Origin: Arcobacteraceae bacterium
Lineage (GTDB): Bacteria > Campylobacterota > Campylobacteria > Campylobacterales > Arcobacteraceae
NCBI GenBank assembly: GCA_048268245.1
Contig: JBLWVX010000001.1
Coordinates: 128,001 to 192,000, forward strand
DNA length: 64,000 nucleotides
Direction of reading: 5' to 3'
In this document: positions 48,122 through 63,975 of the stretch, in pieces
How positions within the stretch are numbered: position 1 is the first letter of the stretch
How the letters are laid out: every line of letters begins with the position of its first letter
Translations under genes and position numbers: made by a program
The notes under the pieces: model-generated
Seen by the model: only the letters and a program-made list of their open reading frames with translations
Database searches by the model: none
Told to the model about the DNA's origin: nothing

Positions 48122-48982
48122 TCATAACTCTTTGTACTTGTTTTTATACCTTTGTAGCATTGATTCATTTCCTATTAATCCACCTTGGTGAATATAAAGG
48201 TAATTATTATATGCTTTATTATCATTATTTATATATCTTTCAAAAAGCTTCATTCCTAAAGAATCGTATAATAGGTCAAACTTTATGTTTGTCTGTTTTA
48301 AAAGCTCTAAATAAATTTCATAAAATTCTTTGTATAACTTTCCAAAATGATATTTCTTTACTTTTGGCAGAATTGCTGGATGATTAGATTTTTCTAATTC
48401 AAAAAATTGTTTTTTTAAATACTCTTCATCTCCTACACATGCACAAGTGATTACTTCATAAGGTAAGTACTTTTGTAAATATAATGCTGTTGTTCCTGTA
48501 CCACTTGGTAAAAATACCTTTAGGTTTTCTATACTATTTTCTTTGGCCCAAAGTTTTATCTCTTCTGCAAGGATTTTTAAGCCAAATTGAGCTTCTTTTA
48601 AAGCTCCCCCTTCTTTTATAAATAATTCATCATCATTAAAACTTTCTGGTATTTCTTTTTCATAAATATTCATACCATTTTTAAGAGCATACTTATAGTT
48701 TCCAACAGGATTATCTTTTAAAAAAGAAGCAATATGATCTACATAATAATCAAACTCTAAGCCTTTTAATTTTGATAAAACGGATAAAGAGTACATTGCA
48801 TTTGATTGAGCAGAGCCGTGGGATACTATTTTTTTTATGCCTGTTAAATCTTTTTGTAAAAAATAGTAAAATTTTCTTGCTTTATTTCCAGAAAAATCTT
48901 TATGGAGTAAGTCATCTCTTTTTATATAAAAACTATTATTGTTGTATTTGATTTTTTCAATTGGAGAGTTTGTATATTTCAT
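48122..48982 (-). CDS. PLP-dependent ACC deaminase / D-cysteine desulfhydrase family protein
   Basis: IKRDDL...SGNKARK, HGSAQSN, PSGTGTT, HQGG; ATG at 48982 preferred. Confidence 0.85.
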   Translation of the reverse strand: MKYTNSPIEKIKYNNNSFYIKRDDLLHKDFSGNKARKFYYFLQKDLTGIKKIVSHGSAQSNAMYSLSVLSKLKGLEFDYYVDHIASFLKDNPVGNYKYALKNGMNIYEKEIPESFNDDELFIKEGGALKEAQFGLKILAEEIKLWAKENSIENLKVFLPSGTGTTALYLQKYLPYEVITCACVGDEEYLKKQFFELEKSNHPAILPKVKKYHFGKLYKEFYEIYLELLKQTNIKFDLLYDSLGMKLFERYINNDNKAYNNYLYIHQGGLIGNESMLQRYKNKYKEL

Positions 48983-49049
48983 TTTAAAATTGTACCATTT
49001 ATTAATAAAATTTATGTACAATAACAAAAAAACTTACAAGAGGATAAAC

Positions 49050-49520
49050 ATGGATATACTTTTTTATATACAAAAAGGTGGTCTTATTGTCTATATACTA
49101 ATAGCTTTAAATATTATTGGATTTACTATAATTCTATGGAAACTATTTACCCTTCCAAGAAAAAATGCCATGATAAAAAAAATAGATGCTAAACTAGATA
49201 AAAACTCTACAAATTCAGTTTTTTCACAAATAGAGTACGAAGTAAAAAAACTAGAAAGTGGGCTTACATATATAAAAAATATTGCAACTATTGCACCCCT
49301 TTTAGGATTACTTGGAACTGTAATTGGAGTTTATCAATCTTTTGATGTAATCACAAAAAATGGCTTAGGTGATCCTAGTGTTTTCTCAAATGGTATTTCA
49401 ATAGCTTTAATTACAACAATTGCAGGTTTAATCGTAGCAATACCTCATCATATTGCTTACAATCATTTTATCTCACAAATTGACTCTATTGAGTTAAAAG
49501 CAAAAAGTACAATTAAATAG
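49050..49520 (+). CDS. exbB: MotA/TolQ/ExbB proton channel protein
   Basis: IAPLLGLLGTVIG, GIS.ALITTIAGL.VAIP; GAGGA RBS before ATG 49050. Confidence 0.88.
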   Translation: MDILFYIQKGGLIVYILIALNIIGFTIILWKLFTLPRKNAMIKKIDAKLDKNSTNSVFSQIEYEVKKLESGLTYIKNIATIAPLLGLLGTVIGVYQSFDVITKNGLGDPSVFSNGISIALITTIAGLIVAIPHHIAYNHFISQIDSIELKAKSTIK

Positions 49521-49521
49521 T

Positions 49522-49917
49522 ATGAAAAGAAGAGAACCTTTAGGTTTAGACTTAACCCCAATCATAGATGTAGTTTTTATACTACTTTTATTTTTTATAG
49601 TAAGTTCTGTATTTAAAAAAGATGAACTGGCTTTGATACTTGATTTGCCAAACTCAAATGCTAAAGAGTTAAAAGTAGATGAAGAACAAGTTTTTATAGA
49701 ACTTAGTTCAAATAAACTTGCAATAAAAGGAATAGAAGTATCTTTTCAATCACTAGAAGATAATCTAAAAGCTATTGAAAATAAACATAAAGCTGTATTA
49801 GTTAGAATTGATAAAAAAGTTGAATATCAACGAGTTGTGAAAGTTTTAGATTTACTTCAAAAATATGATTTAACAAATCTAGCACTTGTTACAAGTCAAG
49901 AAGAAAAAAAGGATTAA
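49522..49917 (+). CDS. exbD: ExbD/TolR biopolymer transport protein
   Basis: DLTPIIDVVFILLLFFIV, RIDK.V.Y..VV.VLD. Confidence 0.9.
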   Translation: MKRREPLGLDLTPIIDVVFILLLFFIVSSVFKKDELALILDLPNSNAKELKVDEEQVFIELSSNKLAIKGIEVSFQSLEDNLKAIENKHKAVLVRIDKKVEYQRVVKVLDLLQKYDLTNLALVTSQEEKKD

Positions 49918-50297
49918 TTTCCCTCTTCTTCTTTTTTTAATTGCTCATACTCTTCATCTGTAAAAATTCTAGACTTAGTTATAAACTGATAACCCATATC
50001 TATTTCAAGAGAAAAAGAGTTACCAAAAGCTGATTTTTCTTCTCTTACATCAATTGTAATAAAAGAGTGTCTAAAATATTCGAATTGGTCTTTATCTATA
50101 AAAAACTCACATCCACATATTTCACCAAGCTTTACATTTCTACTTGGCACATAAAAATCATCTTTTGCATAACACATAGGAGCTGTTCCATCACAACAAC
50201 CACCACTTTGGTTAAATACTAATTCACCATGTTCTTCTTGAAGTTTTTTGATTACGTCACAAGCTTCTTTTGTAACGTCTACTCTTTTTATTGCCAT
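49914..50297 (-). CDS. DUF779 family protein
   Basis: HG.LVFNQSGGCCDGTAPMCY, FSLE; usual partner of AldB-type aldehyde dehydrogenases. Confidence 0.92.
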   Translation of the reverse strand: MAIKRVDVTKEACDVIKKLQEEHGELVFNQSGGCCDGTAPMCYAKDDFYVPSRNVKLGEICGCEFFIDKDQFEYFRHSFITIDVREEKSAFGNSFSLEIDMGYQFITKSRIFTDEEYEQLKKEEEGN

Positions 50298-50400: not shown

Positions 50401-51897
50401 TTAAAAGAATCCTAAAGCATCTTTGCTGTAAGAAGTTAAGATATTTTTAGTGTGTCTGTAAGAGTTTAACATCATCATGTGAGTTTCTCTACCGATACCT
50501 GATTTTTTGTATCCACCAAATGATGCATGTGATGGGTATAAGTGGTAACAATTCACCCATACTCTACCAGCTTCAATTCCTCTTGAGAATTTATGTAATT
50601 GGTGAGCATCTCTTGACCATACACCTGAACCTAATCCGTAGATAGTGTCATTTGCGATTTCTAATGCTTCTTCTTCAGTTTTAAATGTAGTTACAGATAA
50701 TACAGGTCCAAAGATTTCTTCTTGGAAGATTCTCATTTTATTGTGACCTTTGAAGATTGTTGGTTGAATATAGAATCCATTTGGATATTTTTCAGACTCT
50801 AAGATATCTCCACCAATTAAACACTCAGCACCCTCTTCTTTACCAATTTTAATGTACTCAGTAATTTTCTCTTTTTGGCTTAATGAACATTGGGCACCCA
50901 TCATGTTTTCAGTATCTAAAGGATCACCTAATTTAATAGCTTTAACTCTCTCTAATACTCTTGCCATAAATGGCTCATAGATATCTTCATGGATTAATGC
51001 TCTTGATGGACAAGTACAAACTTCACCAGAGTTAAATGCGAATAATACTAAACCTTCAATTGCTTTATCAAAGAACTCATCATCAGCATCCATAATTGAA
51101 GGCATAAAGATATTTGGAGATTTACCACCTAATTCTAATGTTGATGGAATAATGTTTTCAGTTGCATATTGCATAATTAACTGACCAGTTGTAGTTTCAC
51201 CTGTAAATCCAACTTTTTTGATGTCTGGGTGAGTTGATAAGTGTTTACCAATTTTTCCACCTGCACCATTAATAATGTTGATTGTACCTGCTGGTAATAC
51301 CTCTGCAATTGTTTCCATTAATACTAAGATTGACATTGGAGTAGCTGATGCTGGTTTCATAACTACACAGTTACCTGCTGCTAATGCAGGAGCTAATTTC
51401 CAAGCTGCCATTAATAATGGGAAGTTCCAAGGAATAATTTGAGCTACAACTCCGTATGGCTCATATACTTCTTGAGAAATAGTGTTTTCATCTAAATCTG
51501 AAACAGTTCCAGACTCAGCTCTAATTACAGATGCAAAGTATCTGAAGTGATCTACAACTAAAGGAACATCAGCATTTAATGTTTCTCTAATAGTTTTACC
51601 ATTATCTAAAGTTTCAGCAATTGCTAATGCTTCTAAGTTACCTTCAATAGCATCTGCTATTTTGTTTAATAAATTACTTCTTTCTACTACAGAAGTATGC
51701 TTAAATGATTCAAAAGCTTTCATAGCAGCTGCAACTGCTGCATCAACATCTTCTTCATTTGATCTAGGAATTCTTGTTAAAGTTTCTCCATCTACAGGTG
51801 AAATATTTTCAAAATACTCTCCACTTTTTGGAGCAAGCCATTCTCCACCAATAAAGTTCTCATATTGAGCTTTGTACTGCGGTTTACTATAAATCAT
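50401..51897 (-). CDS. aldB: NAD-dependent aldehyde dehydrogenase (AldB/ExaC/AcoD type)
   Basis: IIPWNFP, FTGETTTG, TLELGGKSPN, GEVCTCPSR, QEEIFGPV, FGGYKKSGIGRETH. Confidence 0.92.
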   Translation of the reverse strand: MIYSKPQYKAQYENFIGGEWLAPKSGEYFENISPVDGETLTRIPRSNEEDVDAAVAAAMKAFESFKHTSVVERSNLLNKIADAIEGNLEALAIAETLDNGKTIRETLNADVPLVVDHFRYFASVIRAESGTVSDLDENTISQEVYEPYGVVAQIIPWNFPLLMAAWKLAPALAAGNCVVMKPASATPMSILVLMETIAEVLPAGTINIINGAGGKIGKHLSTHPDIKKVGFTGETTTGQLIMQYATENIIPSTLELGGKSPNIFMPSIMDADDEFFDKAIEGLVLFAFNSGEVCTCPSRALIHEDIYEPFMARVLERVKAIKLGDPLDTENMMGAQCSLSQKEKITEYIKIGKEEGAECLIGGDILESEKYPNGFYIQPTIFKGHNKMRIFQEEIFGPVLSVTTFKTEEEALEIANDTIYGLGSGVWSRDAHQLHKFSRGIEAGRVWVNCYHLYPSHASFGGYKKSGIGRETHMMMLNSYRHTKNILTSYSKDALGFF

Positions 51898-52116: not shown

Positions 52117-54033
52117 ATGAAAACATATAACTATACAATTAAAGACGAATCTTTAGAACTGTTAATAGACTTTGACACTTTAAAAAAAGAAAAAAACATA
52201 TTAATACAAATTTTTTGTGGTCAATCAAAAGAAATTATGAAAACTATTCTAAATAAATTGAAAAAAGAACTTCCTCAAGCAATTTGTATTGGCTCATCTA
52301 CTGATGGAGAGATAGACAATGCAAATATTTCTACAAAAAGAACAGTAATATCTATATCAGTATTTGAAAAAACTCAATTAAAAGTAGCCTATGTACAAAA
52401 TGACAACTCTTATATAAATGGTCAAAAACTAGCAAAGCAGTTATGTAATGAAGATACAAAACTACTTATTACATTTACTGATGGTGAAACTACAAATGGG
52501 GAAGAGTTTTTAAAAGGTATAAGCTCTATTAATAGTAAAGTAGTTGTAAGTGGTGGAATGGCAGCAGATAATGCAACCTTTAAAGAAACATTTATTTTAT
52601 GTCAAGATAAGATTATTACAAAAGGTGCAGTTGCTGTATCTCTTAACTCTAAAGATTTAAAAATTTGTAATGCTTATAACTTTAACTGGTCACCAATAGG
52701 AATAGATCATGAAATAGAAGAAGTTAAAGATAATAGGGTTTATAAAATCTCAGGATTAACACCTTTAGACTTTTATGAAAAATATTTAGGTGAATATGTT
52801 GCAAAAGCCTTACCTGCAACAGGAATAGAGTTTCCTTTAATTGTACAAAAGAATGGAATGCCACTAGCTAGAGCTGTAATTCAAAAACATAGTGATGGAA
52901 GCTTAAGTTTTGCAGGTAATTTAAATAAAGGGGATATTGTAAAGTTAGGCTTTGGTAATGTTGAGCTTATAATGAACAACCCTTTACAATCTTTATTTAA
53001 TAAGTGTTCAGTAACAGGTGTTGAGTCATTTTTTATCTATACTTGTATGGCAAGAAGAAGATATATTCCTGATTTAATTGATATTGAAATTAAGCCATTT
53101 TCAGAAATTGCAAATACATCAGGATTTTTTACATATGGAGAGTTTTATCATAATGATGGGCACAATGAGTTATTAAACCAAACATTAACAGTTGTTGGAC
53201 TTAGTGAAAATAGTGAAATAACTTATGAAGAAAAAGAAGAAGTAGAAGAAAAAAATGACAATGATGATATAAGTGAACAAGCAAGAAGCTTACAAGCTTT
53301 AACACATCTAATTGAACAATCTTCAAAAGATTATAGTAATCAATCTAAGAAGTTAGAAGAAGGAAATAGATACGCTCAAAATTTGCTTGAGTCACAAAAA
53401 CAGTTTTTAAAATATACAATTCATGAAACAAATACTCCCCTTTCAATTATTATGGGGAATATTGACATGTATGAAATTGAGCATGGAAAAAACAAATATT
53501 TATCTAATATTGAAGTTGCTATGAAAAATGTTTTTAGTATTTACGATGATTTAAGTTACTTAGTAAAAAAAGATCATGTAAATAAAGCAACACATGAAAT
53601 AAACTTAGTTGATTTTGTAAGAAGTAGAATTGAGTTTTTTACTCAAACTGCCCTAAAATTTAAATCAACACTAAATTTTATTCATAATATTGATGAAATA
53701 AATATAAGTTTCAATGAGATTAAACTTCAAAGAATAGTTGATAACAATCTTACAAATGCAATTAAATATACATTACCAAATGAAACTATATATGTAAAGC
53801 TTATATATAGAAATAATGAGTGTGACTTTATAATTGAGAGTCGTTCAGTTCAAATACTAGAACCTCAAAAGATTTTTGAAGAGTATTATCGAGAAGAAGA
53901 ATCAAAAGATGGTTTTGGACTTGGACTAAATCTTGTAAAAAGAATTTGTAGTGAAGAAAATGTTGGAATAAAACTAGAGTCTGGTGAAAACTGGGCTTCA
54001 TTTACTTATACATTTAAAGGAATTGAAAAATGA
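52117..54033 (+). CDS. Cytoplasmic FIST-domain sensor histidine kinase
   Basis: FIST motifs IGSSTDGEI, SGGMAAD, WSPIG, EFPL, YTCMARR, GFFTYGEF...LLNQT; H-box HETNTPL, NAIKY, GFGLGL; no TM segment. Confidence 0.9.
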   Translation: MKTYNYTIKDESLELLIDFDTLKKEKNILIQIFCGQSKEIMKTILNKLKKELPQAICIGSSTDGEIDNANISTKRTVISISVFEKTQLKVAYVQNDNSYINGQKLAKQLCNEDTKLLITFTDGETTNGEEFLKGISSINSKVVVSGGMAADNATFKETFILCQDKIITKGAVAVSLNSKDLKICNAYNFNWSPIGIDHEIEEVKDNRVYKISGLTPLDFYEKYLGEYVAKALPATGIEFPLIVQKNGMPLARAVIQKHSDGSLSFAGNLNKGDIVKLGFGNVELIMNNPLQSLFNKCSVTGVESFFIYTCMARRRYIPDLIDIEIKPFSEIANTSGFFTYGEFYHNDGHNELLNQTLTVVGLSENSEITYEEKEEVEEKNDNDDISEQARSLQALTHLIEQSSKDYSNQSKKLEEGNRYAQNLLESQKQFLKYTIHETNTPLSIIMGNIDMYEIEHGKNKYLSNIEVAMKNVFSIYDDLSYLVKKDHVNKATHEINLVDFVRSRIEFFTQTALKFKSTLNFIHNIDEINISFNEIKLQRIVDNNLTNAIKYTLPNETIYVKLIYRNNECDFIIESRSVQILEPQKIFEEYYREEESKDGFGLGLNLVKRICSEENVGIKLESGENWASFTYTFKGIEK

Positions 54034-54689
54034 AAATATTACTTTTAGAAGATGATATTATGTTAAATGAGATGATTACAGAATATTTAACTTCAACTGG
54101 TCATTCTATTACTAATACAACAAAAGGTGACGAGTGTCTAAATATTTTAGAAGAAGAAAAGTTTGATTTATTAATACTTGATATAAATGTACCAAATATT
54201 GATGGATTAACTGTTTTAGAGCAATTACATGAAAAGAAAAGAATGATACCAACTATATTTATATCAGCACTTATTGATATTGAAGATATTGATAGAGCCT
54301 TTAATATAGGTTGTCATGATTATCTAAAAAAACCTTTTCACTTAAGAGAGCTAACACTTAGAATAAATAAAATTCTAAAAACAAATATTGCTCCACAAAA
54401 ACATAAAAGGTTATCAAAAAACTATAGTTTTGATGCAGAGACTATGACTTTATATTTTAATAATGAGCCTCATATCTTACCTAAAAGACAACTTCAAATT
54501 ATTGAATTACTAGCTCATAATAGAAGCTTAGTTGTACAATACGATATGTTTAGAACCTATGTTTGGAATGATGATTTTATAGACAATGCGACAATTAGAG
54601 CAGAAGTAAATAGAGTAAAAAAAGTTTTAAAAGAAGACTTTATTAAAAATATTAGAGGAAGTGGTTATATGGTTGAAAGACCAAACTAA
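54030..54689 (+). CDS. OmpR/PhoB-family response regulator
   Basis: LLEDD, LDINVP, DYLKKPF; winged-helix C-terminus IKNIRGSGY; overlaps the kinase stop. Confidence 0.93.
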   Translation: MKILLLEDDIMLNEMITEYLTSTGHSITNTTKGDECLNILEEEKFDLLILDINVPNIDGLTVLEQLHEKKRMIPTIFISALIDIEDIDRAFNIGCHDYLKKPFHLRELTLRINKILKTNIAPQKHKRLSKNYSFDAETMTLYFNNEPHILPKRQLQIIELLAHNRSLVVQYDMFRTYVWNDDFIDNATIRAEVNRVKKVLKEDFIKNIRGSGYMVERPN

Positions 54690-56376: not shown

Positions 56377-57510
56377 TCAAGCTTCTAAAAATGAAATAGA
56401 ATTTTTTCTATTTCTGTAAAAAATCTTTTGATCGCTATAAGTTATACTATCTTGGATTTTTTGCGTAACAACTGCATGGTCAGGTGATTTAGAACACACA
56501 GGATCTGCAGCATTCATCTCTCCTGTTAGAGCAAAGGCTTGGCATCTGCAACCGCCAAAGTCTTTGTCTCTTTCATCACAAGTACGACAAGGCTCTTTCA
56601 TCCAACTATCACCTCTAAAATAATTAAAGGCTTTTGAATCATACCATACTTCTTTTACAGAGTTTTCTTTTACATTTGGAAAATCTAAAGGTAAAGTATT
56701 TGCTGTATTACATGGAAGTGCAACCCCATCAGGATTGATAGTTAAAAAAGTAGTACCCCATCCATTCATACAAGCTTTTGGTCTATCAGCAAAATAATCA
56801 GGTACAACTAAAAATACTTTCATAGCATCATCTTTTTGTCTATACTCATTTACTTTTGCTTTTGCTTCATCTAATTGCTCTTTTGAAGGAAGCAATGCAT
56901 TTATATTTTTTAATGCCCAACCATAATATTGAATATTTGCAATTTCTAAATAATTTGCCCCAAGAGTTTCAGCAAATTCAATAATCTGCCCTACTTGATG
57001 AATATTTTGTCTAGTAATACAAGTATTAACTATAAGTTGAAGTCCTGCTTCTTTTACTTCTTTAGCAAAAGCAATTTTTTCTTTATATGAATTTTTATTG
57101 TTAGTAATTAAAGTCATAGTATTTTCATCATGAGATTGAATACCTAACTGTACTGTTTTAAGGCCTGCATCTTTTAGTTTTTTTACTATTCCTTTTGGAG
57201 CACCAACACCTGATGTGATTAAATTAGTATAAAACTTTAAATCATTTGCTTTTTGAACTATATCAACTATATCTTTATTTAATAAAGGCTCTCCACCTGA
57301 AATACCAAGTTGAACAGCACCAAGTTCTCTAACCTCATCCATTACTCTAAACCAATCATCTTTGCTCATAGCATCTTTTGTATTTACAAAATCAAGTTGA
57401 TTATAACAATATGAACACTCTAAAGGACACTTATGAGTTAATTCTAAAAGTACCCATAAAGGGGGCTTTATATCTAGTTTCTCATTATTGTTTTTATCAT
57501 TAATCGACAT
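56377..57510 (-). CDS. pqqE: PqqA peptide cyclase (radical SAM/SPASM)
   Basis: ELTHKCPLECSYC (CxxxCxxC), SGGEPL, KACMNGWG, MKEPCRTC...DFGGCRCQA. Confidence 0.96.
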   Translation of the reverse strand: MSINDKNNNEKLDIKPPLWVLLELTHKCPLECSYCYNQLDFVNTKDAMSKDDWFRVMDEVRELGAVQLGISGGEPLLNKDIVDIVQKANDLKFYTNLITSGVGAPKGIVKKLKDAGLKTVQLGIQSHDENTMTLITNNKNSYKEKIAFAKEVKEAGLQLIVNTCITRQNIHQVGQIIEFAETLGANYLEIANIQYYGWALKNINALLPSKEQLDEAKAKVNEYRQKDDAMKVFLVVPDYFADRPKACMNGWGTTFLTINPDGVALPCNTANTLPLDFPNVKENSVKEVWYDSKAFNYFRGDSWMKEPCRTCDERDKDFGGCRCQAFALTGEMNAADPVCSKSPDHAVVTQKIQDSITYSDQKIFYRNRKNSISFLEA

Positions 57511-57769
57511 ACTGCACCCACTTTCTTTCAAATGCTTCATTAAAAAACGCTTCTATATCTTTTTCTAAACCAGACATTTCAAACTTTTTTTCTAAAGTTT
57601 CTACTATCTCATTAAAACTTTTTGTTCCATCACACTGGTTCATAATTTCACCAGCACTTTGATTTAACTGAACCATACCTTCAGGATACAATAATACAAA
57701 ACAGTCTTGTGCTTTTTCAAATTGTAATTGAAAGTGATTATTCACTACAATTAATTTTTCTTTGTGCAT
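57500..57769 (-). CDS. pqqD: PqqA-binding peptide chaperone
   Basis: [18 protein letters not shown]...CDG. Confidence 0.95.
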
Positions 57770-58496
57770 CTTCTACCCCTTCTATATTAAAGTATGGAGG
57801 TTGTTTTAATTCATATGCTAGATATAAAGCATCACACATAGTCCATAAAATATCTAATTTAAATTGTAATATTTCACAAGCTTTACTTTGTAGTTCAACT
57901 GTATTAAACTCTTCTAAAGTTAATGATAATCCATGTTGGACATCTCTTCTTGCTTCACTTAATCTTTTTTGGAAATATCTTAAACCTTTTGGTTCAATCC
58001 AAGGATAATTATCAGGCCAAGTATTAAGTCTTTGTTGATGAATTTCAGGAGCAAACATCTCAGTTAAAGATGACATTGCAGCCTCTTTCCAAGGTCTTTG
58101 TTTTGCAAAATTTATATATGCTTCAACTGCAAACTTAACAGATGGTAAAACATATTTATGAGAAATTAAGTCCTGCTTATTTAATCCAACAGCTTCACCT
58201 AATTCAAGCCAAGCTTCAATTCCTCCACCAACACTATCATGGTCAATAATTCTATCTATCCACTTTCTTCTATCTTCTAAAGGAGGATTATTTGACATGA
58301 TTGCAGCATCTTTAATAGGAATTGCTGTTTGATAATAAAATCTATTTGCTACCCATCCTTGAATCTCTTCTTTTGTACATTCACCTTTATACATTCTAAT
58401 ATGAAATGGATGATGTATATGATACATCTTACCCATAGCTCTTAATTTTTGTTCAAACTCATCTTTTGAAAGTAATTGGTCAATTTTTTTAGTCAT
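57738..58496 (-). CDS. pqqC: Pyrroloquinoline-quinone synthase
   Basis: [41 protein letters not shown]. Confidence 0.96.
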
Positions 58497-58512
58497 AATA
58501 TTCTCTCCTTTA

Positions 58513-59430
58513 TTATATTTCTATACTCATACCATCATAAGAAACTTCAATTCCATGTGAAATAAGCTCCTTATACTCATCACTACTCTCATCTAAGATA
58601 GGATTTGTATTATTTATATGAATTAGTATTTTTCTTGGTTTTTCTAAACTATCTAAAACTTTGATAAGTCCCTCTTCTCCACTTAATGGAATATGTCCCA
58701 TATCAGTTCCAAGCTTATTTGAAAAGTTTCCTTTTATCATTTCATCATTTGTCCATAATGTTCCTTCTATTAAAAGAACATCTGCATTTCTCATTTCTTC
58801 AAATACATGGTCTTCCATAACACCAAGTCCAGGTAAATAAAATAGTCTTTTTCCTGTATTTTTATTTACAACAGTTATTCCTATATTATCACCCTTTCTA
58901 GGTTTATCTCTATACTCTGAGTATGGAGGTGCATTTGAAATTAATGCATGGGCATAAAACTCATAACTAGGCATTACAGGAATTTCAAATTTTGTAGTTG
59001 AATCTGGTAAGATTTCATGCCAGGCAGTTCCTCCACCATCCCAATGTTTTAGCATTTTCATAGTAGGAAATGATGTGTTTAATTCTTCATTTACTTCTTT
59101 TGTACAGTAAATTTGATGAGGACATCCCTCTCTTAACATAAGTAGACCTGTTGTATGGTCAATTTGTGCATCATTGAAAACAATAGCTTTTATTTTTGTT
59201 TCTCTTTTTTTAGTTGGGTGTAAAAAAGGGGAATTATGAATTTGCTCTAAAATATCTGGTGAAGTGTTAAATAAAACCCAGTTTTCACCATCTTCACTTA
59301 TAGTAATAGAACTTTGTGTTCTTCTTTTAATAGTTTCTTTACCTTCTCTGTAACCCTTACAGTTATCACAGTTACAGTTAAACTGAGGAAGTCCTCCTCC
59401 TGCACCTGATCCTAAAACTTCTATTCTCAT
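58513..59430 (-). CDS. pqqB: PQQ biosynthesis protein B
   Basis: [45 protein letters not shown]. Confidence 0.96.
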
Positions 59431-59443
59431 AATCTTCCCTTAA

Positions 59444-59488
59444 CTCTTTTTATAATTAAGTCTATTTTAGACTTAATTATAAAAAGAG
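59444..59488. repeat. Perfect 21-bp inverted repeat upstream of the pqqB RBS
   Basis: CTCTTTTTATAATTAAGTCTA-TTT-TAGACTTAATTATAAAAAGAG. Confidence 0.85.
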
Positions 59489-59513
59489 CAAACTAGCCGA
59501 AACTAGTTTACTC
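59481..59513 (-). terminator. Intrinsic terminator between pqqA and pqqB
   Basis: Minus strand: GAGTAAACTAG-TTTCGG-CTAGTTTGCTC-TTTTT. Confidence 0.8.
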
Positions 59514-59523
59514 AAATTAGGTT

Positions 59524-59598
59524 CTACTCGTTACAAATATACATTGTTACTTCAAAACCAAATCTATTATCTACAAACATAGGTGTTTCCCATTTCAT
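59524..59598 (-). CDS. pqqA: PQQ precursor peptide PqqA (MKWETPMFVDNRFGFEVTMYICNE); not in ORF track
   Basis: Manual translation gives 24 aa with W..P...D.R.GFEVTMY (E-x-x-x-Y); AAGGAGG RBS upstream; directly before pqqB. Confidence 0.97.
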   Translation of the reverse strand: MKWETPMFVDNRFGFEVTMYICNE

Positions 59599-59634
59599 AA
59601 CAATTACCTCCTTTGTAAGATTTTTGTGTTCAAA

Positions 59635-61425
59635 CTACTTATGTAATTTGAACACGTGTACTGAACCACCTTGGTTTAAAAGCTTAACAGCTTTTGCAAC
59701 TTCACCACCCCATAAAGGAACGGCTCCACCCCAACCAGATACTACAGCAATATATTGCTCACCATTTTGCTCCCAAGTAATAGGAGAAGAAACGATTCCA
59801 GATCCAACATTAAATGAGTATAACTCTTTACCCGTTTCATCATCTAATGCTAAAAGTTTACCTTCTGGATTACCTGTAATTACTAAACCACCAGCAGTAG
59901 TTAAAACTCCACCCCATAATGGTGCTTTGTTTTTATAAATCCACTTAATTTTTCCAGTTACAGGATCAACAGCTTTGATAGCACCAATGTGATCTTCGTA
60001 AATAGGTTTAATAGTAAATCCAGCACCTAAGTATGCTGCACCTTTTTTATAAGAAACAGGTTGATTCCAAATATCCATTCCCCACTCATTTGCAGGAACA
60101 TAGAATAATCCAGTTTTTTGTGAGTATGCCATTGGATTCCAGTTTTTCCCACCTAAGAATGAAGGTACTGAGAATACAGATTTACCTTTTTTCCCATTTA
60201 CAGGAGCTCCAGGTCTATTATCTTCATTTACTATAGGTCTACCATTTTCATCAATTCCTTTAGCCCATGTGATTTTATCAACAAAAGGAGTAGATCTGAT
60301 GTATTTACCATTAACTCTATCTAAAACATAGAAGAATCCATTTTTATCAGCAGTAGCACCGGCTTTTACAACATTTCCATTTTCATCTTTGTAATCAAAT
60401 GGTATAAATTCAGCCATACCATCGTAATCCCATCCATCATTTGGAGTAGTTTGGTAATGCCATACAACTTTACCAGTATCAGGATTTACAGCAACTCTTG
60501 AAGCAGTGTATAAGTTATCACCTTTTCTTAAGTGAGAATTCCAAGGTGCAGGGTTTCCAGTTGGAACATAAATTAAGTCTGTTTCAGGATCGTAAGTTAC
60601 ACCATTCCATGGAGCACCACCACCATGTTTCCAAGTATCACCTTCCCAAGTAGCATTTAAAGTACCAGTAATACCATTTTCTTTACCATTTAAGTATCCC
60701 ATATGTCCTTCAACCATTGGTCTAGTCCATATTAATTTACCTGTATTTGGGTTTCTAGCCTCTACTTTACCAACAACACCAAATTCACCACCAGATACAC
60801 CAGTAATTAACATATCTTTTACGATAAGCGGAGCAGCTGTAAATGAGTACCCATCTTTATACTTAGCAATTCTTTTTTTCCATTTAACTTTACCAGTCTT
60901 TCTATCAAGAGCAACTAGTTTTGCATCAAGTGTTCCAAAAATAACTAAATCACCATATAATGCAGCACCTCTGTTAATAACATCACAACAAGGTAAAATT
61001 GCATCAGGAAGTCTTGCATCATATTGCCATAACTCTTCACCAGTTAAAATATCAATAGCAAAAAGTCTAGAGTAAGAAGCAGTTACATACATAACTCCAT
61101 CTTTAACTACAGGTTGAGACTCTTGTCCTCTTTGTTTTTCCCCACCAAAACTAAAGTTCCATACTGGAACTAAATCTTTAATTGTGTCTTTGTTGATTTG
61201 AGTTAATGTTGAGTATCTTTGACCTTTTGGTCCTAAACCATAACTAACTACATCACCAGGTGTTTTTGCATCATTTACGATTTCATCATATGTAACTGGT
61301 GCAAATGATGGTTTTGTAACTTTTGTTATGCTATTATTTTCTGTGTTGCTAGACATAGCACATCCACTAATTAGTGCAGCTAGTGTAACGGCAACTGCAC
61401 TAGTTAGCAATCTATTCTTATTCAT
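59635..61425 (-). CDS. pedH: Type I PQQ-dependent alcohol dehydrogenase, lanthanide-dependent PedH/ExaF type, predicted lipoprotein
   Basis: Vicinal C146-C147 (PCCDVINRG), E214 (SGGEFG), [10 protein letters not shown]333-Y-D335-[12 protein letters not shown]; lipobox ISG-C22. Confidence 0.88.
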
Positions 61426-61477
61426 CTTCTCTCCTTCTTAATTTTGATAACAAACCTGAAAAATTTGTCTGAAAAGA

Positions 61478-61509
61478 AGTATACATAAGAAATATAGCCT
61501 CAGTTTAGC
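61478..61509 (-). promoter_or_regulatory. pedH-like promoter with two TAGC boxes
   Basis: Plus-strand TAGC at 61495 and 61506; minus-strand -10 TATACT at 61478-61483; closely resembles the aldB promoter. Confidence 0.72.
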
Positions 61510-62287
61510 TATGATTTACTTTTTTAGATTTAAAACCTACAAAGGCCATTATTAGGGTTATTACTAAAGAAATTAGCACAATTATTAAAGAGTTTGCATC
61601 AATTTTTAGATATAAAGTAAATCTTATAGACTCAACTATATAAGTAAATGGATTATAAGATGATATATTAAATAAAATAAGTGATGAATCTTTTATTTTC
61701 CATAAAGGATATAAGGCACTACTTAAGAAGAACATCGGAAAAATCACAAAGTTCATTACTGTAGCAAAGTTCTCTAACTGTTTAATTACAGAAGAAATAA
61801 ACAGTGCAAATGCATTTAGTATTATTGAAGAAATCATAATAATTGGAATTGTTGCTAAAATAGCTAAAAAAGATATATCAACCCCATAAACTTTTGCAAT
61901 GAGTAAAAAAGTTACCGCTTGTATTGTAGATACAATTGCTGTTGCAAACATCTTACAAAAAAGTAAATAGTTTCTATTGATATAAGAAGATAGTAAAATT
62001 TTCATACTTCCCATTTCTCTATCAAATATCATAGTAAGACTACTTTGCATACCATTGAAAAGTAAAACCATTCCAACAAGTCCTGGGACTATGTATGTTT
62101 CATAAGTGATATATGTTTCATATGGAGGAATAATAGCTAAACCTAAAGCCGTTTTAAAACCCACTGAGAAAATAAATAACCATAATAAAGGTCGCACTAG
62201 AGCTGAAAAAAATCTACTTTTTTGTTTTACAAATCGAATTAACTCTTTATAGATAATTCCTTTCATACAATTTATATAAATATTCAT
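61505..62287 (-). CDS. ABC-2 type permease of the PQQ-ADH-associated transporter (PedC-like)
   Basis: SALVRPLLWL..F..GF...LG..I.PPYETYITYE.YIVPGL..M.LLFNGMQSSL.M..DREMGSM, FPMFFLSSALYPLW. Confidence 0.87.
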   Translation of the reverse strand: MNIYINCMKGIIYKELIRFVKQKSRFFSALVRPLLWLFIFSVGFKTALGLAIIPPYETYITYETYIVPGLVGMVLLFNGMQSSLTMIFDREMGSMKILLSSYINRNYLLFCKMFATAIVSTIQAVTFLLIAKVYGVDISFLAILATIPIIMISSIILNAFALFISSVIKQLENFATVMNFVIFPMFFLSSALYPLWKIKDSSLILFNISSYNPFTYIVESIRFTLYLKIDANSLIIVLISLVITLIMAFVGFKSKKVNHS

Positions 62288-62290
62288 CTT

Positions 62291-63013
62291 TTACCTTACT
62301 ATTTGATTGAATGTATCAACCAAGTTATCTTTTTCATACTTTTTAACAATATCTTTTACAATTCCAGACTCTACTATCTCACCTTTTTTAATAAATGATA
62401 TATCATCATCTTCTTTTACTTCATCAAAAAGATGTGTAATCCATAAAACACTTAAGTTTTCTCTTTTTACTAAATCTCTAACATAATCTAAAATATCAAA
62501 TCTACTTTTTAAATCAAGCCCAACTGTAGGCTCATCTAAAAGTAATAGCTTTGGTTTATTTATCAAAGCTCTCAAAATTTCAACTCTTCTTCTATGACCA
62601 CCATTTAATTTTCTAGCAGTAATATCTAGTGAATCCTGTAATTCAAGCCTTACTATTTCATTTTCTACAGATTTTATAGTATCTTTAAAACCTAAACCTT
62701 TAAGTGAACCATAATAATAAAGATTTTGTCGTACGGTTAAATCTAAATCCAAAGTTGGTTCTTGAAAAACAATACCTATATCTTTTAAGGATTTTGAATA
62801 ATTTTTTATTGAGTGTTGATTTATATTTATAGTTCCAACTTCAAGTTTTAGAAGTCTAGTAATTAGTGAGAATACTGTAGATTTTCCAGCTCCATTTAGT
62901 CCTAGCAGAACAGAAAAACTGCCCTGCTTTATACTAAAAGATATATTATTTAATACCTTTTTAGATCCATAAGAAAAATCTACATCTTTTAATTCTAAGA
63001 TATTTTTTTCCAT
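62291..63013 (-). CDS. ABC transporter ATP-binding protein (PedB-like)
   Basis: GLNGAGKST, VFQEPTLDLDL, LNGGHRRRVEI.RAL, LLDEPTVGLD. Confidence 0.9.
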   Translation of the reverse strand: MEKNILELKDVDFSYGSKKVLNNISFSIKQGSFSVLLGLNGAGKSTVFSLITRLLKLEVGTININQHSIKNYSKSLKDIGIVFQEPTLDLDLTVRQNLYYYGSLKGLGFKDTIKSVENEIVRLELQDSLDITARKLNGGHRRRVEILRALINKPKLLLLDEPTVGLDLKSRFDILDYVRDLVKRENLSVLWITHLFDEVKEDDDISFIKKGEIVESGIVKDIVKKYEKDNLVDTFNQIVR

Positions 63014-63015
63014 GA

Positions 63016-63975
63016 TTATTTACTTGGGATTACTGCTAAGCCCCAAGGGTATCTTCCAACTTGAATAGTTTTCTTAACTTTTAAAGATTCTACATCAATA
63101 ACAGAAACATCACCACTTACACCATTTGTAGTATAAAGTTTCTTTTCATTATTTGCAAAATCAAGCATCCAAACTCTACTTCCAACTAATAAGTATTTGA
63201 TTACTTTATATGTCTTTGCATCAATTACAGCTACATGATTTGCAGGTCCTAAACCAACAAAAGCATATTTACCATCACTTGTTAATTTAATACCAACTGG
63301 TTGAATTAAATCTTTAAAGATTCCAGGAATTTTAAAAGAAATCTTTGAAAGTGGCTCTTTAGTTTTTGTATCTATAACCATTACAGTTCCACCAATTTCA
63401 CTTGATGCCCAAATTTTATCACCACTTTTTGTAAATTCAATATGTCTTGGTCTTTGATCTACTAAAGTATTATGAACAATCTTTTTAGTTTTTGTATCAA
63501 TCCAATGTAAAAAGTTTGATGTTTCTGATGTATTAATAGCTATTGATCCATCTGGACTTACAGCCATACCCTCAGGCTCAATACCAACTTCTATTTGAGC
63601 AACTACATCTTTTTTTTGAACATCTACAACTGTTACAATTCCATCATCTTCATTTGATATGTAAAGTTCTTTACCATCTGGATGTAAAGCAAATTGTTCT
63701 GGATCTTCACCTGATGGAAGGCTATATAAAATTTCACCAGTTTTTGTATCCATAGCTTGAACTGTATCATCATCACTTGCACAAATATATAGTTTTGAAT
63801 AATCTTTTGTAAGTAGAATTCCTCTAGGTCTTTGACCAACCTCATAAGTTTTTATAACTTTATCTGTGTTTGAATCTATAACAGTAATAGTATTATCTTT
63901 CTCATTTGAAACAAAAATAGTATCTGCTAGTAAACTTGTTGATAATAATGCAGATGCTAATAATAATCTCTTCAT
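63016..63975 (-). CDS. YVTN beta-propeller protein, PQQ-dependent catabolism associated (PedA2-like)
   Basis: Signal peptide; VSNEKDNT, VGQRPRG, LPSGEDPE, VGIEPEGMAVSPDG, VGRYPWG repeats. Confidence 0.87.
   Translation of the reverse strand: MKRLLLASALLSTSLLADTIFVSNEKDNTITVIDSNTDKVIKTYEVGQRPRGILLTKDYSKLYICASDDDTVQAMDTKTGEILYSLPSGEDPEQFALHPDGKELYISNEDDGIVTVVDVQKKDVVAQIEVGIEPEGMAVSPDGSIAINTSETSNFLHWIDTKTKKIVHNTLVDQRPRHIEFTKSGDKIWASSEIGGTVMVIDTKTKEPLSKISFKIPGIFKDLIQPVGIKLTSDGKYAFVGLGPANHVAVIDAKTYKVIKYLLVGSRVWMLDFANNEKKLYTTNGVSGDVSVIDVESLKVKKTIQVGRYPWGLAVIPSK

Follow-up and report, generated by a model that had tools for sequence, protein, structure and literature searches.

The DNA analysed here, which we call the window, is a stretch of 64,000 nucleotides from an Arcobacteraceae bacterium (positions 128,001 to 192,000 of the forward strand of contig JBLWVX010000001.1, assembly GCA_048268245.1), and positions below are counted from its first letter unless another stretch is named. 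On its minus strand, an ATG-started, stop-free open reading frame at 59635..61425 encodes a protein of 596 amino acids that we identify as a type I alcohol dehydrogenase dependent on pyrroloquinoline quinone (PQQ) and similar to PedH and ExaF; public (NCBI) annotation gives it as a generic PQQ-dependent methanol/ethanol family dehydrogenase. The gene is part of a string on that single strand with the order pedA2-pedB-pedC-pedH-pqqABCDE. A first-pass annotation had proposed that the enzyme belongs to the lanthanide-dependent kind, and its metal ligands and its homology, set out below, lead us to predict the same.

Membership of the PQQ methanol/ethanol dehydrogenase family is clear, the protein scoring 783 bits against TIGR03075 (NCBIfam) where the cut-off is 480. 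When it was compared with all PDB chains by phmmer, the best match was PedH of Pseudomonas putida (6zcw, 850 bits; 6zcv, 845 bits; E-value 9e-255), and the other scores were 711 bits for ExaA (1flg), 365 for the type II enzyme 1kv9 and 339-354 for XoxF (6dam, 354). Given this E-value and the TIGR03075 score, the relation to PedH is one of homology and not of chance. The residues picked out in the first-pass annotation, namely D333 with an additional D335 in the active-site segment, E214, the Asn of a TGNP motif and a vicinal Cys pair, can all be read from the translation, the Asn being N291 (in PTGNPAPWN) and the Cys pair C146-C147 in AILPCCDV, which is invariant in a 42-row alignment. In the phmmer alignment, WDYDG of the query lies over WDFDG of PedH and WDFSG of ExaA, so that D335 falls, as had been supposed, on the extra Asp of PedH, and on a Ser of ExaA; the Ser or Thr expected of PedE and ExaA two residues after the catalytic Asp is replaced by Asp at 335. 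Furthermore, E214, N291, D333 and D335 align to chain positions 173, 255, 297 and 299 of 6zcw. The Pr3+ ligands of PedH are Glu199, Asn281, Asp323 and Asp325 (PMC11845868; the papers cited here by accession are drawn on in excerpt), and the constant offset of 26 between these numbers and the chain positions means that all four PedH ligands are matched. The C-terminal half, which had been described as reading like PedH rather than XoxF, does so: the strings in question are almost letter-identical to PedH in the same alignment, in agreement with the bit scores and with the trees described below.

An AlphaFold model was built from the 42-row alignment, without cofactor, and reached a predicted template modelling score of 0.87 and a mean predicted local distance difference test score (pLDDT) of 81.9, with weak stretches at residues 1-32, which form the signal, and 214-216. 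A Foldseek search with this model again placed 6zcw first (template modelling scores 0.90/0.95, root-mean-square deviation 1.7 Å, 65% identity), and identity was 56% to 1flg and 36-38% to XoxF structures. The predicted structure shows the eight-bladed PQQ-propeller fold.

That the extra Asp marks lanthanide coordination is inferred from established work on PedH, ExaF and XoxF (PMC5487730; 10.1101/2020.02.25.964783; PMC11845868). PedE has Ser295 where PedH has Asp (PMC5487730), and function with La was lost in XoxF1 D320A and ExaF D319S (preprint 10.1101/2020.02.25.964783). We read this column across 134 rows, with reference rows drawn from 80 named loci and all family members of five named genomes. 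Tree labels are anchored by the PDB scores of congeners and not by the characterised proteins themselves, ExaF itself being absent: the anchors are the Asp-type gene of Pseudomonas sp. YJ42 (PedH, 1134.5 bits), the Ser-type gene of the same organism (ExaA, 1217.9 bits) and the Asp-type gene of Methylobacterium organophilum, taken as ExaF-like (PedH, 877 bits). Column 335 holds Asp in all PedH/ExaF-like rows, Ser in ExaA/PedE-like rows, Thr in type II rows, Ala in the one presumed MxaF row and Asp in XoxF-like rows. The best matches are reciprocal as well, since the window protein scores higher with PedH than with ExaA (850 and 711 bits) and the Ser-type paralogue of one relative scores higher with ExaA (1FLG, 1014.5 bits) than with PedH (661.6 bits).

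In a FastTree phylogeny of 131 rows, from which three fragmentary or divergent rows were left out (L149, L083, L097x2), the Asp-type proteins of Campylobacterota form one clade of 46 rows (support 100), and the sister of this clade (98) comprises 37 gammaproteobacterial Asp-type rows that are Oceanospirillales-like, Alteromonadales-like or from Pseudomonas. The Ser clade, with 17 rows (100), excludes the window protein and contains nine Campylobacterota paralogues as a clade of their own (100). A quick IQ-TREE analysis of 64 chosen rows under LG+C20+F+G4 with posterior mean site frequencies gave the same groups, with supports of 100, 99, 100 and 99, and did not resolve the base of type I. In these trees the XoxF-like rows stand together with the single presumed MxaF row in a separate clade, to which the window protein does not belong. 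Two groupings, both named after seeing the tree, were put to the approximately unbiased (AU) test. Joining all Asp and Ser rows of Campylobacterota was rejected (log-likelihood lower by 352, p-AU 0.0009), and for this reason we take the two types in this phylum to be of separate origin, with the window protein outside the Ser clade. Joining the Campylobacterota Asp clade with the whole Ser clade was not rejected (log-likelihood lower by 23, p-AU 0.137). Gammaproteobacterial PedH is therefore not a secure sister group, and the placement deserves less confidence than the support values alone would give it. The tree proposed in the first-pass annotation thus bears it out in that the protein groups with Asp-type PedH/ExaF-like proteins outside the Ser-type PedE/ExaA clade, and falls short of it in that the references are congeners and that sisterhood to the Ser clade is unrejected. 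The argument from the ligands is independent of the sister-group placement. A single clade beside gammaproteobacterial PedH points to an old lateral acquisition of the Campylobacterota copies, which would then have passed among Arcobacteraceae and reached a small number of Sulfurimonadaceae.

Where the gene occurs in Campylobacterota was followed at several depths. The nearest named protein is that of Arcobacter sp. YIC-464, at 97% identity, in keeping with the first-pass description of the host as Arcobacteraceae-like, and other named matches come from Poseidonibacter, Malaciobacter, Aliarcobacter, Arcobacter arenosus and metagenome-assembled genomes (MAGs) of Sulfuricurvum. Among 184 Arcobacteraceae species genomes, 58 hold a match, spread over 10 of 22 genera. 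A close, Asp-type-like match is present in 53 of the 184 and a second type, 58-60% identical, in nine, five of which lack the first type; both occur together in four genomes (G155, G156, G168 and G170), and the first type stands alone in 49 of the 58. The motif is WD[YF]DG in all 45 family Asp-type orthologues read and WDFSG in all nine second-type paralogues; the eight of the 53 in which it was unread (G099, G026, G027, G142, G171, G167, G023 and G141) are mostly partial or broken matches. Identity to the window protein is 97-99% in three other carriers of the genus and 73-84% across the family. In a phylum sample of 401 genomes, none of the 377 from 13 other families matched. Among Sulfurimonadaceae, seven of 353 genomes hold copies that are 73-80% identical, and all seven have both the Asp motif and the Lys at residue 361 that is discussed below.

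Some single cases from this survey deserve mention. In relative G155 (L042:496-8026), a Ser-type gene and a pentapeptide-repeat gene lie between pedA2 and pedB, upstream of the Asp-type gene, an arrangement that would be, by analogy with PedE and PedH, a built-in pair of calcium and lanthanide enzymes. An Asp-type gene with Gln at the column of the Asn ligand and with pqqB and pqqC upstream was seen in L084, a MAG labelled Patescibacteria, where its presence is likely due to mis-binning. Seven public runs from four studies hold at least half of the sampled 31-mers of the cassette (56377-63975), with labels that include oyster and aquatic metagenomes, and one of these runs may derive from the source sample. 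Six public RNA runs hold just 0.07-0.14 of the sampled cassette words, a fraction that is uninformative on transcription or habitat.

The window protein departs from PedH in two local features. The first is K361, at a position 28 residues after the catalytic Asp where a conserved Arg stands in all Ser-type rows and in 62 of the 66 non-Campylobacterota Asp-bearing rows, XoxF-like ones included. The Asp-type rows of Campylobacterota fall into two subclades at this point. All 21 rows of the subclade that holds the window protein and a Sulfurimonadaceae MAG read N-D-G-W-D-[YF]-D-G-[MI] and have Lys361, and the other 25 rows read H-D-G-W-D-F-D-G-V and have Arg, as do PedH and ExaA. Type II quinohemoprotein dehydrogenases also have Lys in this column, which makes activity of a K361 protein plausible. 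We do not regard the Arg as defining the metal type, yet its replacement is a departure. The second feature is a lipoprotein-type signal at the N-terminus (61360-61425), where a basic start and a hydrophobic run are followed by the lipobox LISGC with Cys22, as found by pattern match. The same pattern was found in 26 of 45 Asp-type and two of nine Ser-type proteins of the family and in two of 79 rows of other phyla, the N-termini of which were only roughly trimmed. We therefore predict that the dehydrogenase is exported to the periplasm and probably lipid-anchored. PedH of Pseudomonas is not known to be a lipoprotein.

These comparisons also bear on the view that the protein is a calcium-dependent or metal-promiscuous ethanol dehydrogenase whose Asp is ancestral baggage, calcium being abundant and rare earths scarce in seawater. 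Such a view can draw on the position of the Ser clade among Asp-bearing lineages, with the type I base left unsettled, which makes Asp probably the older state, and on the AU test, which leaves sisterhood to the Ser clade open; against it stands the retention of all four PedH ligands in 45 of 45 family orthologues read. Four relatives hold a separate Ser-type gene in or near the same cluster, which is the division of labour seen between PedE and PedH and would serve no purpose with an Asp type that also ran on calcium, although the K361 substitution does mean an altered active site in the subclade of the window protein. The characterised enzymes point both ways, in that PedH appears able to coordinate calcium if grown without rare earths (PMC11845868), whereas calcium-loaded XoxF1 has little or no activity (preprint 10.1101/2020.02.25.964783) and it was the extra Asp of PedH that prompted its assay with rare-earth metals (PMC5487730). 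Taken together, we consider use of calcium by this enzyme unlikely, and we continue to regard it as most likely a lanthanide enzyme.

Directly upstream of the dehydrogenase, on the same strand, lie genes for a PedC-like ABC-2 permease of the type associated with PQQ alcohol dehydrogenases (61505..62287; TIGR03861 phenyl_ABC_PedC, 344 bits, cut-off 241), a PedB-like ABC ATP-binding subunit (62291..63013; TIGR03864 PQQ_ABC_ATP, 282.6 bits, cut-off 302, by far its best family) and a PedA2-like YVTN beta-propeller protein (63016..63975; TIGR03866 PQQ_ABC_repeats, 502 bits, cut-off 287). Downstream, again on the minus strand, follow pqqA, for a PQQ precursor peptide of 24 amino acids with the E-x-x-x-Y core (EVTMY) as read from the translation (59524..59598), pqqB (58513..59430; TIGR02108, 378 bits, cut-off 245), pqqC (57738..58496; TIGR02111, 331 bits, cut-off 240), pqqD (57500..57769; NF002535, 105.7 bits, cut-off 101; TIGR03859, 99 bits, cut-off 46) and pqqE, for a radical S-adenosylmethionine protein (56377..57540; TIGR02109, 479 bits, cut-off 381). 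Between pqqA and pqqB, a consensus scan found a terminator-like hairpin on the minus strand with a 12-bp stem and a T run (59486..59513), a possible attenuator; it is a pattern match from a scan that gave five terminator-type sites in the region where 2.5 were expected. A promoter scan was uninformative in this AT-rich DNA, with 38 sigma-70-like sites where 40 were expected by chance.

This layout is characteristic of the phylum. The gene immediately upstream of the dehydrogenase is pedC in all 12 Campylobacterota loci, whereas pedC takes that place in none of the 68 loci of other phyla (within 3 kb), pqqA was found by tblastn within 11 of the 12 loci, and pqqB is downstream of the dehydrogenase in 10 of the 12, one locus stopping at a contig end. 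The G+C content of the cassette is 0.32, within the range of 0.23-0.33 found across the window; foreign-island composition, which we had considered as a mark of recent transfer, therefore finds no support.

The intactness of the cassette also tells against a gene that is silent or in decay, left over from a transferred island and without a working enzyme. In favour of such decay, two relatives, G167 and G171, give only fragmented matches, in pieces that are adjacent or apart; in the former (G167:C15:400587-402369) two neighbouring fragments of the Asp-type gene join at residue 351, which we read as a frameshift or an assembly error. In the window, however, the frame is intact, the complete pqq operon and the transporter genes lie on the same strand, and the composition is not clearly foreign, while the high identity among genus and family carriers and the invariance of the catalytic columns would be hard to square with a pseudogene. 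We find it extremely improbable that the gene is a remnant.

Pseudomonas putida requires the transporter PedA1A2BC to grow when lanthanum is nanomolar, and a shift of roughly 100-fold in lanthanum requirement is linked to these genes there. The four protein kinds that make up PedA1A2BC in that organism (PMC6839425) are the same as those found here. The string in the window holds three of these four genes (pedA2, pedB and pedC). The fourth lies in the 12 kb beyond the end of the window (stretch L002), which we also analysed: upstream of pedA2 is a gene for a small exported protein of 138 amino acids with an acidic patch (L002:2152-2568, minus strand), and after it, in divergent orientation, a PedA1-type binding protein (TIGR03863, 423 bits, cut-off 414). 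DUF302 and DUF411 proteins and a second ABC transporter follow, and then, about 9 kb from the dehydrogenase, the PedF cytochrome c550 (TIGR04494, 206 bits, cut-off 122), which is succeeded by genes for three further proteins: a binding protein of family 3, a carrier similar to SoxYZ (TIGR04557) and a metallohydrolase of the 'quinoprotein relay' kind (TIGR04558), all in L002:7251-10183 on the plus strand. This group is a poorly understood companion of ped clusters. The 138-residue protein matched nothing in Pfam or NCBIfam; it may assist the transporter by handling metal in the periplasm. Clusters of similar proteins carry the automatic Atlas name 'copper-binding protein family', which we take as a lead only, and relative G155 has an open reading frame of 139 amino acids at the matching position.

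On the other side of the pqq genes, the minus strand carries a gene for an ExaC-like NAD-dependent (acet)aldehyde dehydrogenase (50401..51897; Pfam Aldedh, 519 bits; best family NF050026 AcaldDHExaC, 829 bits, cut-off 900) and, downstream of it, one for a DUF779 protein (49914..50297; PF05610, 125 bits). An ExbB/ExbD pair on the plus strand (48939-49917) adjoins these two genes, and a TonB-dependent receptor was not noticed nearby. Window genes upstream of about 46 kb are housekeeping genes. Candidate local regulators of the cassette, linked to it by position only, are a FIST-domain histidine kinase (52117-54033, plus strand; Pfam FIST, FIST_C, HATPase_c) and an OmpR-type response regulator (54030-54689, plus strand; Pfam Response_reg, Trans_reg_C); an AraC/GyrI-type regulator was recognised by family match further along the window. 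A LuxR-type PedS2/PedR2 pair was not seen near the cassette, a statement confined to this neighbourhood as no genome-wide search was made. The genome thus holds the parts of a ped/exa-type system, namely cytochrome c550, aldehyde dehydrogenase, PQQ synthesis and a PedA1A2BC-type transporter.

The assembly as a whole (57 contigs, 99.28% complete) contains a single match both to the window protein and to TIGR03075. The first-pass annotation had noted that no calcium-type paralogue is present in the window and had suggested a genome-wide search for a pedE/exaA paralogue; its statement is correct and extends to the whole assembly, in which protein and TIGR03075 searches found no Ser-type paralogue. 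A membrane-bound PQQ dehydrogenase was not found in the genome either. We had thought of the dehydrogenase as the sole client of the pqq operon, an idea that we dropped as there is a second possible PQQ user, a GSDH-family gene (soluble PQQ sugar dehydrogenase) on contig 14 (G000:C14:44603-45565, minus strand).

The same neighbours and genome searches bear on a role as a functional methanol dehydrogenase, in the manner of XoxF, for methylotrophy or for co-oxidation of one-carbon compounds. 'Methanol oxidation' genes are given for one Arcobacteraceae clade in an excerpt of PMC11265409 that leaves the enzyme unnamed, which would suit such a role; the dehydrogenase itself, however, is far closer to PedH than to XoxF in score and in identity, stands outside the clade that unites XoxF-like rows with the presumed MxaF one, and has an ExaC-like acetaldehyde dehydrogenase and PedF as neighbours. 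In the genome, hexulose-phosphate synthase had no match above its cut-off (best 26 bits, cut-off 200) and formaldehyde-activating enzyme was not found, which speaks against a classical methylotrophic role, though these searches did not extend to the serine cycle or to other formaldehyde routes. We hold a methanol dehydrogenase function to be very unlikely, and ethanol or other alcohols remain, in our view, the substrates to be expected of a PedH/ExaF-type enzyme.

Several known systems resemble the one described here, and PedH of P. putida KT2440 (6ZCW/6ZCV) is the closest: it is the best solved match and shares the four metal ligands, the Cys-Cys pair and near-identical C-terminal motifs, and its system likewise has PedA1A2BC-type transporter genes, the PedF cytochrome and an aldehyde dehydrogenase alongside. 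The system of the window differs in belonging to another phylum, in joining the dehydrogenase gene to both pedA2BC and pqqABCDE in a single string, in the lipoprotein-type signal where that of PedH is plain and in Lys361 in place of the conserved Arg. It also differs in that the genome is without a PedE partner and hence without a calcium/lanthanide switch. ExaF of Methylorubrum extorquens AM1 falls in the same Asp-bearing type I clade (via its M. organophilum congener, for which PedH scores 877 bits compared with 850 for the window protein), but the alphaproteobacterial rows split off outside the grouping of the Campylobacterota clade with the gammaproteobacterial one. ExaA of P. aeruginosa (1FLG) and PedE share the fold, the disulfide, the Glu, the Asn, the catalytic Asp and 56% identity with the window protein and differ in having Ser at its D335; they belong to the Ser clade, from which the trees separate the window protein with full support. 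XoxF (6DAM, 6OC5, 4MAE) has the extra Asp (WDYDG) and the general fold in common with it, in contrast to an identity of 36-38%, scores of 339-354 bits and a separate clade, and neighbours of the XoxJ or XoxG type were not recognised at the cassette. Finally, the type II quinohemoprotein alcohol dehydrogenases (1KV9, 1KB0) match at the K361 column, but they have a C-terminal haem domain, Thr at the 335 column and scores of 331-365 bits.

Based on these observations, we propose a pathway in which the enzyme would oxidise alcohols such as ethanol to aldehydes in the periplasm, the pqqABCDE genes would supply PQQ as the organic cofactor, the PedF-type cytochrome c550 would accept the electrons and hand them to the respiratory chain, and the aldehyde would be oxidised by the ExaC-like dehydrogenase (50401-51897) as the presumed second step. 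That the protein is a periplasmic PedH/ExaF-type enzyme that acts in this way on ethanol or other alcohols, with a light lanthanide and PQQ, we consider likely, and we hold to this with good confidence on the strength of ligands, phylogeny and gene context. As the genome lacks a Ser-type paralogue, its PQQ-dependent alcohol oxidation should depend on the supply of rare earths.

A number of points weigh against this reading. Metal preference, substrate and expression are all deduced from sequence. Lys361 takes the place of an Arg that we take to contact PQQ in methanol and ethanol dehydrogenases, and the model, which has no cofactor in it, is of low confidence (pLDDT below 50) at residues 214-216 and so at the ligand E214. 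The AU test, as described, does not reject a union with the Ser clade. The PedB-like ATPase (283 bits, cut-off 302) and the ExaC-like protein (829, cut-off 900) score below the curated cut-offs of their families. PedA1A2BC-type genes accompany calcium-type enzymes too, so the transporter is consistent with lanthanide use without being specific evidence for it. Finally, with an assembly in 57 contigs, a second dehydrogenase may sit in a gap.

Most characterised lanthanide-dependent enzymes come from methylotrophs and from Pseudomonas. The first-pass annotation was not aware of the trait having been characterised in Campylobacterota, and our full-text literature search likewise found nothing that links Arcobacter or Arcobacteraceae to PedH, ExaF, XoxF, PQQ dehydrogenases or rare earths, though an earlier listing in a tree or a supplement is possible. 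Since the enzyme family is known, the novelty lies in its range and in the phylum-specific layout of the cassette, and no new chemistry is involved. Calcium-type (Ser) paralogues do occur in Arcobacteraceae, in nine genomes, but not in the genome of the window. In its widest form, our proposal is that rare-earth biology reaches Campylobacterota through a self-contained, laterally acquired module of pedA2BC, a lanthanide-type dehydrogenase and pqqABCDE in many Arcobacteraceae of the sea and of estuaries and in a small number of Sulfurimonadaceae, that periplasmic alcohol oxidation there is strictly lanthanide-limited, and that the subclade of the window protein is a distinct, lipid-anchored Lys361 form of PedH. 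We lean towards this wider proposal, if only slightly.

Were it true, about a fourth of Arcobacteraceae species would need rare earths to oxidise alcohols, most carriers being without a calcium back-up enzyme. Arcobacteraceae occur in large numbers where oxic and sulfidic waters meet, on marine particles and in both shellfish and wastewater, and are also associated with animals; carbon turnover in these habitats would then be under a trace-metal control, and possible failures of cultures on alcohols in glass-free or lanthanide-free media would be explained. The cassette would also offer for study a compact, portable unit of transporter, enzyme and cofactor synthesis. Cultured carriers exist, among them Arcobacter sp. 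YIC-464 and Arcobacter arenosus as well as Poseidonibacter lekithochrous and Malaciobacter pacificus, both of which appear to hold the Ser type beside the Asp type, so a dependence of alcohol oxidation on rare earths in this family would be cheap to test.

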